DNA from: Candidatus Thorarchaeota archaeon
GTDB lineage: Archaea > Asgardarchaeota > Thorarchaeia > Thorarchaeales > Thorarchaeaceae
Assembly (NCBI GenBank): GCA_048884785.1
Contig: JBHLQM010000003.1
Span: 66,887 to 130,886 of the forward strand
Length of the DNA: 64,000 bases
Direction: 5' to 3'
Shown here: positions 50,122 through 55,675 of the stretch, in pieces
How positions within the stretch are numbered: the first letter of the stretch is position 1
How the letters are laid out: each line of letters opens with the position of its first letter
Translations under genes and position numbers: made by a program
The notes under the pieces: generated by a model
What the model was told of the DNA's origin: nothing
Database searches by the model: none
The model's input: the letters and a program-made list of their open reading frames with translations, nothing else

Positions 50122-50200
50122 TCAGCTCATCGTAGGATAGGTTATCCTACGAAATGATTTGGATTATAACTCTTACTAATAGGATAATTGTATCCAGTAA

Positions 50201-50456
50201 GAAGGTGCTTCCAGGAATAGAGGTATTTGTGAATCGACTGGACACAAGAACTCTGCAAGGGGACCTTAGACCCAAAATGGGTACTATTGAACGAACGAAT
50301 GCAGATTGCGCTAATGACGCAAATCGCAATCGCAGTCTTTCAAACATGGGAAGTGTCCAGTCGATTTTTCACTGATGAATCGAAGTGATTCAACCATAAT
50401 CTTGCGATTATTCCCCGTTCATCAGTCCCCTGACGCAATCTGATACTGGAATCTTC
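50201..50456. ncRNA. Candidate structured RNA (unassigned family)
   Basis: 14-bp, 9-bp, 9-bp and 7-bp perfect complementarities plus an end-closing stem within 260 nt of intergenic DNA. Confidence 0.5.
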
Positions 50457-51185: not shown

Positions 51186-51346
51186 ATTTCTCTACAAAAA
51201 GCGAAAATAATGCCTAATTGCGATTAATAATGGAGATTTCCGGAAATGCGAATTATCTAGTGACAAGCTTTTTTAGTGACACACTCAGCATCGTTACAGA
51301 GATTATCTCCTACAAAAACACACAATGGGACCGGGAGAATTGAAAA

Positions 51347-52586: not shown

Positions 52587-53150
52587 ATGAATACGAGAAC
52601 TAGGTTTCTATTTCTTGGATGTGTCATTTTTATTCTACTTGGATTACTACTTGTGGCACTTCCCCGAGAACGGTTGCTCTCTAATGAGGAATACACACCT
52701 CTACAGGCATATCCCACATACTACTATACGAGTTTCACAGTGGAGAATGCCGATTCAAACGCAGTGATTCGTATTAATCTCGACGTAGAGCGCGGCGGGA
52801 ATTTCTCTCAATATTCAACCATGTGGATTCTCTATCAGCTCACACAATTTCAGTTTGAGGAAAGCTTCAACATAACTGAAGTTTACAACATAATGCACAG
52901 TGGAGACTGGAGCGAAAACTGGACAGTCCACTATTTCTGGTTAGGCGGGATTCTCGGCGACTATATACTGCCCTCTGGAGAGCCTATTCCTCCTAGTGCC
53001 TATGTCTTTGTATTTTGGATTGAGCCCGAAGACCCAATAATGGGTTGGTCTGCCACCCTCACAATATCTCTGCAGACAAGTATACTCACATCGTCTCCTT
53101 TGATACCCACATCCTCTCCTTTGAAATGGCTCTTCAGGTCAGGTCTTTGA
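52587..53150 (+). CDS. Hypothetical protein with N-terminal TM anchor
   Basis: TM then aromatic beta-rich domain. Confidence 0.65.
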   Translation: MNTRTRFLFLGCVIFILLGLLLVALPRERLLSNEEYTPLQAYPTYYYTSFTVENADSNAVIRINLDVERGGNFSQYSTMWILYQLTQFQFEESFNITEVYNIMHSGDWSENWTVHYFWLGGILGDYILPSGEPIPPSAYVFVFWIEPEDPIMGWSATLTISLQTSILTSSPLIPTSSPLKWLFRSGL

Positions 53151-53212
53151 TGTTCATTTGAGAGTCCATTCTGGCTAACTATTTATCTTATCTTGGGAGC
53201 TGGAATTATTTG

Positions 53213-53574
53213 GCAGAAGGTGATACAAGTGAGAATATAACACTCCCTTTTACCGCTTGACGTATTATGGGATGTCCTTTCGTATTTTGGAACACTAGGA
53301 AGGTTCATATGTGCAAGTTTCACCCTGCAGAATGTATCACTCAGGTGATACACCTTCGAAGCCAACAGTGTTGAGCCTCGGATCCCCCGTCATAGGAACT
53401 CGCATTCGCAACACACGGTTACGGTCCCTAATTGAGTTTCTAACGCATTGGTCCCTTCTGAGCTGTAAAAGCTCGGAACTTGCGCATAACTGATTTCTTC
53501 CGGGCGCTCAGTGCTGAAGGCATCCACGGATGCGGGACTTCGGTCCCGTTTCCAATCGAAGTCCACTCTTCTGT
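53213..53574 (+). ncRNA. Candidate ~360-nt structured RNA (unassigned family)
   Basis: End-closing stem, C(UUCG)G hairpin, several 7-9 bp stems with G-U pairs on +, TATA-like box about 28 nt upstream. Confidence 0.55.
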
Positions 53575-53692
53575 GTATACTACCTGCGATAAATTAGGCA
53601 TTATAGACAAGATTATCTCATAAGCAGAGGGATAGAATTTTGATAACGACTGTAGCCGCAGCCATGCCGACTATTTCCAATGGTGATATGTT

Positions 53693-55675
53693 GTGATCCA
53701 CAATACATTCCTCATTCGAGCTTCGACCAACGAGATTCTAGCAAGCACACAATACTGGCCTGTTGAAGTCGACAAAGCAGCTCTGAATGAATTCATTGCA
53801 ACTCGAGAAGAACTTCGTAAAGAGGATTCAACACTGGCAAACTTTCCATTGATTATTGGAGACGACAAATTTCAGGGTCGGGACTTGGCTACAGATGTGG
53901 TTCTTATTTTTGTGACTGATAAGGGGGAGGACGAATCTGCAATTGGAGATCGACTAGATTCTGCAGTATCCTCTTTAAGAAAGCGACTTGCAAAGAAAAG
54001 CCTACCAGAAGTATTGGATACTTTCGGGTCTATCATCGAGCCTTCCATCATTACTCGTTTGAAGATTGCCCTGGTTGGAGAAGGTGGTGTCGGAAAAACT
54101 ACAACCCTTCACCTCCTCATGGGGGACACACCCCCACTTCAATACGTACCAACAATCGCACTTAACCTTGAAACGGTTGAGAACATCCGTTTTGGAAACT
54201 ATTCACTTGTGCTTTGGGATTTTGCTGGCCAGGAACGGTTCAGAAATCTCTGGAAATTCTACTTCCATGGAGCAGACGTCATCTTCCTAGTATGTGATTC
54301 ATCCCTGCGGAACGTCATTATTAGCAAAGATATTTACAAACTCATTAAGCGCGATGCACCTAAGGTGCCTGTATTTGCTCTTGCGAATAAACAAGATAAG
54401 CCCAATGCGATGAGATCTGAGGTTGTACAGAAGATATTGGGCATTCCCACATACCCCATGGTAGCAATCGACAAAAGTCGTCGAGATGAGATGCTGCGGA
54501 TACTAATGACCGCTGCTGCACAGTTTGTTGGTGTCGTTCTTCCTGACTTACCAGCATCTGAACTTCTGCGATTTACTGATGAAGCAACAGCAGGTGCAAT
54601 AGAGACTGAGCAGCTAAGCTCAATGAAGGAGATTGAAGAAGAAGAACAAGAAGCTGATGTTGAGGAAGTTTTCGTCGATGAGGAGGGTCATATTCTAACT
54701 GCAGAAGAGATGGAAGGAGAATTTGACTACGAAATTGTTGAAGAAGTCATTGAAGTCGATGAAGAGGCAAATGAAATTGAAGCGGATGAATTAGAGGTGG
54801 CCTCGTCAGAGGAGATGCTCGATGCTCCGGTCGAAATGACTGATGAAGTTTCAGAGGCTGCAATTCCTGAATCCGAAGAAGAACCCACTATGCCAAAAGC
54901 TATGCTTGAACAAGAGATAGCTACTGAAGCCACAAAAGATGAGGCTGAGATGCCTGTTGAGCCCGAAGACACGAGGATTTCGGACTCTGAACCAATCACT
55001 GAATTTGCACCTCCTACCGAAGAGGATATAGCTGATATTGAAGTTGATTTGACTGCTGAGGAGGAACCCACTTCCAAGCTGGAGGAGCCAGCCGAAACCT
55101 CCACTGAACATTGGGTTGAGGATATTGAAGAAGAAGTACATTCTGATGTTGATGAAGACATCACAGTACAAGAATCACCAACTCCTGAGCCCAGCCTTGA
55201 AACATCTCCAGAGGCTTCAAAATTAACTGAGGCATGGGAGCTTGCTACAGTGTCAACTGATGATAGAGATGAATCAGCTGTTTCTATTGAAATGACAGAG
55301 GATATGTCGGAAGAAGCAATAGGAGAACATCCTGTCGAATCCGATGATTCGCGCAGAATGGCCAAGGATTTAATCTCAGAAGCGCTTGATGCAGATGATA
55401 TTATCGCGGCTGAAATTGAGAGAGTTTCGGAAGATGAATTGCATATAGCTCTTGAGGCGTTTTCAAGTGATGAAACAGTTTCAAAAGATGAAGAAGAGAA
55501 CGAAGTTTCAACCGAACAGATTGCCCAGGAGGCTTTGAAAGAACTTGAAGACATCTTGGGTCCTGTGGACGAGCAAACGTCTTTGGATGAAAAAGCAGAC
55601 ACAGATGATGTAGAAGAGGACCTCGATGCCCTAGACACATTGTTTGCGATGATGTTTGGGGATGATGACAAGTAA
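53693..55675 (+). CDS. Longin-like domain + Arf-like GTPase + long acidic disordered tail
   Basis: GEGGVGKT, YVPT, WDFAGQERFRNLW, NKQD; ~120-aa N-domain; ~360-aa Glu/Asp-rich tail. Confidence 0.88.
   Translation: MIHNTFLIRASTNEILASTQYWPVEVDKAALNEFIATREELRKEDSTLANFPLIIGDDKFQGRDLATDVVLIFVTDKGEDESAIGDRLDSAVSSLRKRLAKKSLPEVLDTFGSIIEPSIITRLKIALVGEGGVGKTTTLHLLMGDTPPLQYVPTIALNLETVENIRFGNYSLVLWDFAGQERFRNLWKFYFHGADVIFLVCDSSLRNVIISKDIYKLIKRDAPKVPVFALANKQDKPNAMRSEVVQKILGIPTYPMVAIDKSRRDEMLRILMTAAAQFVGVVLPDLPASELLRFTDEATAGAIETEQLSSMKEIEEEEQEADVEEVFVDEEGHILTAEEMEGEFDYEIVEEVIEVDEEANEIEADELEVASSEEMLDAPVEMTDEVSEAAIPESEEEPTMPKAMLEQEIATEATKDEAEMPVEPEDTRISDSEPITEFAPPTEEDIADIEVDLTAEEEPTSKLEEPAETSTEHWVEDIEEEVHSDVDEDITVQESPTPEPSLETSPEASKLTEAWELATVSTDDRDESAVSIEMTEDMSEEAIGEHPVESDDSRRMAKDLISEALDADDIIAAEIERVSEDELHIALEAFSSDETVSKDEEENEVSTEQIAQEALKELEDILGPVDEQTSLDEKADTDDVEEDLDALDTLFAMMFGDDDK

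Follow-up and report, generated by a model that had tools for sequence, protein, structure and literature searches.

Does the non-coding gap between a species-specific 187-aa open reading frame (52587-53150) and a gene for a longin-Arf-like GTPase encode an RNA, and if so, what might that RNA do? The gap lies within a 64,000-nt stretch of DNA (the window) from the 3.6 Mb genome of a member of the Thorarchaeota (Asgard), with a strongly conserved gene of 379 aa further upstream. An earlier note on the window had read 53213-53574 as a structured RNA of about 360 nt, either an undescribed ncRNA or a switching leader of the GTPase gene. Comparative sequence evidence indicates that the gap holds a real, uncatalogued ncRNA gene, here called RNA A, of about 220-240 nt and not 360. 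The gene, its boundaries, its structure, its distribution, a conserved site complementary to it and a paralog, RNA B, were established computationally; coordinates are collected in Table 1.

Table 1. Positions in the window of RNA A, its paralog RNA B, and neighboring genes and sites.
Feature	Position	Strand	Remarks
RNA B, paralog of RNA A	50229..50436	-	5' hairpin, P1, box, homologous P2, shared motifs
RNA B P1	50353-72/50229-45	-	covarying
RNA B box	50247-65	-	
RNA B AGGGGAC	50425-31	-	in 5' hairpin
RNA B TATA-like box	50459-66	-	
Candidate target site GGGACCG (51327-33), abutting SD (GGAG)	51327..51337	+	5' leader of 379-aa gene
Candidate target gene, 379 aa	51347..52486	+	longin + winged-helix; NPRL2/GATOR1-like architecture
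RNA A promoter	53295..53311	+	purine-rich BRE + TCWTATG TATA-like box; box in 64/72 homologs
RNA A, ncRNA gene	53334..53572	+	inferred start 53334; 3' hairpin ends at 53553, then pyrimidine-rich tail
Optional 5' hairpin	53334..53351	+	variable; missing in several genera
P1, 5' strand	53368..53382	+	partner 53498-53511
Box 1, unpaired C-rich motif UCCCCCGUCA	53383..53392	+	C-run conservation 76-100%; mean predicted unpaired probability 0.65
P2 hairpin (53395-401/53434-40)	53395..53440	+	large loop holds box 2; 97% of cells paired
Box 2, CGGUCCC	53422-28	+	in P2 loop; GGUCCC conservation 82-94%
Box 3, UUGGUCCC	53448..53455	+	extended to GGUCCCCUUGCA in several genera
Variable hairpin, then box 4	53457..53486	+	hairpin loop often bears additional UCCC
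Box 4, ACUUGCGCA	53478-86	+	follows variable hairpin
P1, 3' strand	53498..53511	+	partner 53368-53382
3' terminal hairpin	53528..53553	+	opened by conserved GGAUGCGG
Longin-Arf-like GTPase gene	53693..55675	+	downstream neighbor only; own promoter region

Extent and promoter of RNA A

Neither the window nor ten homologous loci gave an Rfam match at gathering or E-value thresholds, and the homologs covary, in keeping with the earlier proposal of an undescribed ncRNA. All the segments listed in that proposal lie at the coordinates given for them, and 53213-53574 folds better than shuffled sequence (z = -4.4, 0/100 shuffles); the trimmed RNA, 53334-53570, gives z = -5.0. The proposed size did not survive comparison. 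Its first 120 nt consist of unconserved spacer and RNA A's own promoter. The region 53213-53290 is not conserved, and at positions equivalent to the supposed terminal stem (53213-22/53564-74) the longest helix is usually one of 4-7 bp (58/71 homologs). In 11 genomes, fewer than 154 nt separate the end of the upstream CDS from the RNA A core, so that an RNA of 360 nt would overlap it. A TATA-like box placed at 53180 is not conserved among homologs, the repeat of AGGTGATACA is specific to the source genome, and the same is true of the competing pairing 53535-43/53556-64.

The promoter resembles those of the tRNA, SRP RNA and RNase P RNA genes of the same genome. Downstream of the TCWTATG box, T occurs at +22 in 48 of 64 homologs and G at +23 in 45 of 64; this Y-G initiator at a fixed distance places the start of RNA A at 53334, which coincides exactly with the first base of the 5' hairpin. 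The 3' end falls at about 53555/53572, and lengths across the family range from 180 to 264 nt. A scan for sigma-70 promoters was set aside as irrelevant to an archaeal host. Immediately 5' of the BRE, at 53275-53290, an inverted motif of the form TTCG-N-GAA is conserved in several genera and is a possible activator site.

RNA A does not appear to be a small protein gene: homologs share no conserved frame, the longest Met-initiated frame varies from 3 to 91 codons, and the lengths of the core are spread over all three frames. To read RNA A as a divergent RNase P/MRP or SRP RNA is scarcely credible. That reading draws on the likeness of one 10-mer, AGGAAGGTTC, to RNase P CR-I, but the segment proves to be promoter DNA (BRE and TCWTATG box), homologs do not conserve the CR-V-like segment, the alignment shows no evident P4 pseudoknot, and a canonical RNase P RNA (162 bits) is encoded on another contig (C48). 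The SRP RNA is located on another contig as well, and RNA A has neither an Rfam match nor the helix 8 motif of SRP. Archaeal RNase P RNA (RF00373) and SRP RNA (RF01857) are like RNA A in being single-copy, family-wide, strongly structured and served by a similar promoter type, but RNA A has none of their conserved regions or architecture.

Distribution and synteny

Homologs of RNA A occur at the same locus in 80 of the 86 genomes of the Thorarchaeota family, 77 recovered by a covariance model and three more through synteny or a second model, with a single copy per assembly in every case but one. By BLAST, 16 of 36 family genomes had homologs, aligned only over about 53260-53555 plus the GTPase promoter region. 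A pattern derived from RNA A matched 16 of 185,579 species genomes, of which 14 are Thorarchaeota and the other two belong to the same family. In a genome of the sister family (G037), the flanking genes are direct neighbors and the locus has no RNA. Covariance model R2 matched none of 40 other Asgard genomes nor G037; since it also missed the RNA-bearing genome G019, the result for other Asgard genomes reads as not found rather than absent. Pattern searches of viral contigs gave no match, and in two loose pattern searches across the phylum, controls matched equally often. Three matches of a 17-mer in another Asgard family were a coding site in glutamate dehydrogenase. A MITE or other mobile repeat was rejected: dispersed copies were not found, and RNA A is single-copy at a fixed locus. 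As RNA A appears lineage-restricted, the data do not show it to be an ancestor of any eukaryotic RNA.

The synteny bears on the proposal that RNA A is a riboswitch or attenuator leader of the longin-GTPase gene. In 57 of 72 loci RNA A does lie 140-320 nt upstream of that gene and shares its strand. In 10 genomes, however, the distance to the start of the GTPase gene is 1.1-1.2 kb, and where this interval was inspected it holds a reverse-strand ORF; in another two, RNA A is followed by a convergent gene. The alternative pairing lacks conservation. Ahead of the GTPase gene stand a terminal hairpin, a U-rich tail and a separate, conserved promoter-like element, and G037 has the flanking genes without the RNA. 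We consider the leader reading extremely improbable.

Several changes have affected the locus. The 187-aa ORF, with a hydrophobic N-terminus and no Pfam match, is missing from the locus in all 16 relatives checked and, judging by that comparison, is a recent insertion between the 379-aa gene and RNA A. A transposase-like insertion separates the 379-aa gene from the RNA A promoter in G399 (L106). The near-palindrome AGATTATCTC occurs at 51300-51309, ahead of the 379-aa gene, and at 53610-53619, ahead of the GTPase gene; the latter copy is kept in the genus, and G037 has a similar one.

Expression evidence

Sixteen RNA runs from 14 studies contain words of the stretch. In three of four runs examined (three studies), close relatives' contigs begin at 53352-53364, show no loose 5' end, and reach about 53521. 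Contigs from RNA libraries cannot show strand, ends or level, and such libraries may hold DNA, so these metatranscriptome contigs are compatible with a discrete RNA A and are no proof of it. We infer that RNA A is transcribed as a discrete RNA. Because this stretch itself guided the choice of runs, and because coding DNA of the relatives reaches only 73-79% identity, under the 80% cut-off, missing contigs for the flanking genes and for RNA B are uninformative.

A covarying scaffold with conserved C-rich boxes

The main covarying helix, P1, was overlooked in the earlier note and first detected by RNAalifold with no prior structure supplied. Across 71 distinct sequences, P1 shows double-sided changes in all 13 of its 13 pairs, with 88.9% of cells paired, and P2 shows them in 5 of 7. 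For the two helices together, 91.7% of cells are paired, compared to 75% after shuffling and at most 50% in slid registers, and the covariation score is 0.518, compared to 0.22 and no more than 0.14, respectively; the alignment, having been fitted to the tested structure, leans towards it. G-U pairs favor the plus strand. Among helices drawn earlier, that at 53393-401/53434-42 is conserved as P2, and the 3' hairpin is conserved across homologs, opening at 53528. Two further hairpins, 53333-52 and 53458-76, are genuine yet vary between lineages.

Sequence drifts in the helices and stays fixed in short single-stranded boxes. The boxes are mostly 80-100% conserved, even though four-fold degenerate sites of the neighboring gene are saturated (33-37%) even within the genus. 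The scaffold helices expose two to four near-invariant UCCC/GGUCCC boxes, mostly unpaired by prediction (mean unpaired probability 0.71 for GUCCC of box 3), and inserted loops bring additional UCCC motifs. Each RNA A core has an average of 3.2 UCCC compared to 0.25 GGGA, so the boxes are without a partner in cis. An expanded variant in one relative (G021, L188:912-1135) has about five GUCC/GUCCC-type repeats.

The paralog RNA B

The earlier note had linked RNA A to an element near 50201. That link is real through GGUCCCCUUGC, GAGUUCU and CUUGCG, which occur there on the opposite strand, although the 9-mers cited for it lie outside the conserved parts. A whole-genome scan for clusters of these motifs found only RNA A and RNA B in non-coding DNA. 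RNA B was detected in 25 genomes from six genera. Its box is complementary in cis to its own 5' AGGGGAC, with a mean energy of -13.0 kcal/mol compared to -6.6 for shuffled sequences (23 genomes), and the flanks of the two partners co-vary, which suggests that the box works by RNA pairing. RNA A has no partner of this kind in cis, so its partner should be in trans. At 50255, inside the element that proved to be RNA B, stands the genome's one exact complement of the extended box 3 of RNA A. Trans pairing of the two RNAs reaches 12 bp in the source genome and is not consistently better than the cis pairing of RNA B.

In one genome (G013, L227), a transposase-like insertion truncates the 5' half of RNA B. 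A 19-bp palindrome at 50132-50150, downstream of the TATA-like box of a DUF4430/ECF transporter operon, is seen in several relatives and has four further copies in the genome; it resembles operators of the DtxR/IdeR type.

Candidate partners in trans

One possible partner is 16S rRNA. Box 1 can form 10-12 bp with the 5' strand of helix 28, beside the central pseudoknot, in most variants, so that RNA A might be a U3/snR30-like guide in ribosome assembly or its regulation. Sites of 11 bp turn up in 13 of 400 shuffled 16S sequences and at 10 places in the whole genome, and single-copy conservation across the family fits a housekeeping role. Against this, the match is post hoc, one of 12 box-by-rRNA tests, and pairs a pyrimidine run with a G-run. 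A second strong match, to h6, is lost in relatives and failed covariation, and G029 keeps the 16S loop where the RNA has changed. No C/D, H/ACA or K-turn motif was seen in the alignment columns or by Rfam, box 1 of RNA B does not fit, the RNA was not found in the other Asgard genomes searched, and RNA A shows no excess complementarity to 23S, RNase P or SRP RNAs. We judge the guide reading very unlikely. The 16S genes of relatives (L057-L085) themselves have numerous insertions, each exactly 30 nt long and resembling a hairpin mini-intron, at about eight fixed sites, and also introns of 740-900 nt near E. coli position 908.

Another candidate came from listing the translation starts of the source genome that carry GGGAC. 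In the leader of the 379-aa gene, GGGAC lies at -19 to -22, touching the Shine-Dalgarno (SD) sequence, in 48 of 58 family genomes and 10 of 13 genera, with near-variants in four more. The 23 nt that precede it are identical between genera at a level of 0.26, which is random. Controls carry GGGAC in 1 of 57 cases (GTPase leader), 1 of 85 and 28 of 1952, for a background of about 1%, and in G037, with no RNA at the locus, GGGAC is missing from the neighbor's leader. The motif is non-coding and sits well within the inferred leader, not at the initiator; a general preference for GGGAC at initiators was not borne out.

The protein of 379 aa has no Pfam match. Its AlphaFold2 model (pLDDT 87) has a longin-like N-terminus followed by winged helices, and Foldseek returned weak matches to GATOR1/SEA/FLCN chains (E about 2e-3, TM about 0.25).

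The predicted duplex of RNA A with its cognate leader averages -12.7 kcal/mol, compared to -5.5 and -5.2 for control segments, and spans 7-13 bp across the family, the seed in the source genome being only 7 bp. RNA-target covariation was not significant by genus-level permutation (p = 0.17; p = 0.37 among genera with the site). Four lineage-specific compensations, picked by eye, are GGGACUG with AGUCCC in a subclade of genus g6, GGGACCUG with CAGGUCCC in g9, AUGGGACCG with CGGUCCCAU in g2, and UUCGUACG/CGUACGAA against UUCGUAGG/CCUACGAA in g12. The 5' GGGGAC of RNA B is able to pair with the same box as the leader GGGAC. Genera g5 and g13 retain the boxes and have no GGGAC site in the neighbor's leader. 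In g12 (L177-L179), that leader is longer, with repeated ACGT-containing units and no GGGAC, and box 1 complements a hairpin within it instead. Genome-wide, translation starts included no outlier and showed no excess of pairing over coding controls. As other targets, aEF-1beta was rejected because its site encodes Gly-Pro codons of the upstream gene, and endonuclease III and a longin paralog on contig C6 were also rejected.

As its boxes match a conserved site beside the ribosome binding site (RBS), RNA A probably controls the 379-aa gene by base pairing; both the pairing and its effect are predictions from sequence. The same complementary site would serve equally if RNA A were a cis element, carried as the 3' UTR of a read-through transcript of the 379-aa gene and paired with that transcript's own 5' leader, in which case a long-range 5'-3' contact would control translation or decay. 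The 379-aa gene lies directly upstream of RNA A on the same strand in 71 of the 72 loci examined, and RNA A often begins 63-280 nt past its stop codon. RNA A nevertheless has a conserved promoter to itself, the source genome, G015, G355 and G399 have insertions of 0.6-1 kb between it and the gene, and genera without the leader site retain the boxes. This makes the cis arrangement distinctly unlikely.

We regard as unlikely a CsrB-like sponge or scaffold, in which GUCCC/CUUGC repeats would bind an RNA-binding protein and the leader motif would be kept for some other reason. Variable copy number of the motifs, their occurrence in inserted loops, their different arrangement in the two paralogs and the non-significant RNA-target covariation would all suit it. 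A sponge, however, would mimic its target in the same sense, whereas the conserved leader site is complementary, and the RNA B box has a co-varying RNA partner. Ro60 was not found, and each genome has only two or three short KH-domain proteins, the same as in the sister family. A Y RNA/YrlA reading was rejected, as a search for its partner Ro60 (TROVE) matched 0 of 5 genomes, with a control matched in 2 of 14.

Proposed mechanism and relation to known RNAs

The reading we favor, to which we assign somewhat better than even probability, is that RNA A acts in trans as a C-rich multi-seed sRNA, functioning like RsaE/RoxS/LhrC. RNA A would be transcribed independently as a free-standing RNA, in which P1, P2 and the terminal hairpins make up a scaffold that may drift in sequence while pairing is kept. 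The scaffold would hold two to four short C-rich boxes single-stranded, as redundant seeds for GGGAC sites in mRNA leaders. At the best-supported target, the leader of the adjacent longin/winged-helix gene, a duplex of 7-13 bp beginning at -19 to -22 would contact the SD sequence and most likely reduce ribosome loading, the sign being putative. Boxes 1 and 4 and the GGAUGCGG stem are given no partner in this scheme, and near-universal conservation throughout a family exceeds what is usual for an mRNA-targeting sRNA; both points weigh against it.

RsaE/RoxS present unpaired UCCC motifs on a stable scaffold, and these bind G-rich sites in mRNA leaders (PMC2790875); RoxS in addition binds one mRNA at its extreme 5' end (PMC5419742). 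RNA A is like these RNAs of Staphylococcus and Bacillus in having several unpaired, conserved UCCC motifs, a helical scaffold with 5' and 3' hairpins, and predicted pairing at the SD region. It differs in being archaeal, about twice as long and multi-branched with a long closing helix, in having no sequence or Rfam match to them, and in that its seed GGUCCC complements GGGAC upstream of the SD and not the SD core. LhrC1-5 of Listeria monocytogenes have three redundant UCCC sites each, which bind a G-rich stretch upstream of the start codon (PMC4132741). They share with RNA A the paralogous copies and the redundant UCCC in loops and linkers, but they are not homologous, and RNA A has a single divergent paralog with its own complementary 5' motif. 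Because there is no homology to RsaE, RoxS or LhrC, RNA A would work like them and not be a member of their families.

Masking of an RBS by an archaeal sRNA has a precedent in sRNA162 of Methanosarcina mazei (PMC3510493). A single-stranded region of sRNA162 masks an RBS and the RNA also acts on a neighboring gene, as is proposed for RNA A; the abstract on sRNA162 mentions no repeated C-rich seeds, sRNA162 is not homologous to RNA A, and the neighbor of RNA A is by contrast on the same strand and not overlapping.

RNA A, then, has its own promoter and 3' hairpin by sequence, conserved UCCC motifs predicted to be unpaired, and a complementary site in an initiation region. It is most simply described as a ncRNA family that is both real and new, which predicted function places among C-rich sRNAs, with a specific candidate target. 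Our literature search found no description of RNA A, nor of any Asgard sRNA with a predicted target. For this family there are a structure supported across about 80 genomes, a paralog, and a well-defined candidate site of 7-13 bp, testable in vitro with no need to culture Thorarchaeota. If the proposal is true, a longin/NPRL2-like partner of a small GTPase is under RNA-level regulation in an Asgard lineage, by a C-rich multi-seed strategy best known from Gram-positive bacteria.

A second candidate target

In a gelsolin-like gene (G000:C16, start 43139), so named from a weak atlas lead only, GGGAC occurs at the putative +1 in 11 of 27 other genomes, including those of g5 and g13. RNA A might bind the first nucleotides of this mRNA and could there protect the 5' end instead, a site that resembles the mRNA 5' end bound by RoxS. 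Alternatively, GGGAC may be a gene-specific initiator element. A broader reading, which we hold tentatively and think doubtful, is that RNA A and RNA B tune eukaryotic-signature proteins in an Asgard circuit. RNA A would act through differently flanked boxes, CGGUCCC on the NPRL2/GATOR1-like longin regulator encoded beside the Arf-like GTPase and UUGGUCCC on the gelsolin-like mRNA. RNA B, holding both a seed and a target mimic in its 5' loop, would be a self-locked switch or a decoy for RNA A. Many of the gelsolin-like orthologs (L278 homologs, L283-L309) have no in-frame ATG, GTG or TTG at the aligned start, where ATT/ATC-like codons follow a strong SD sequence, a possible case of non-canonical initiation.
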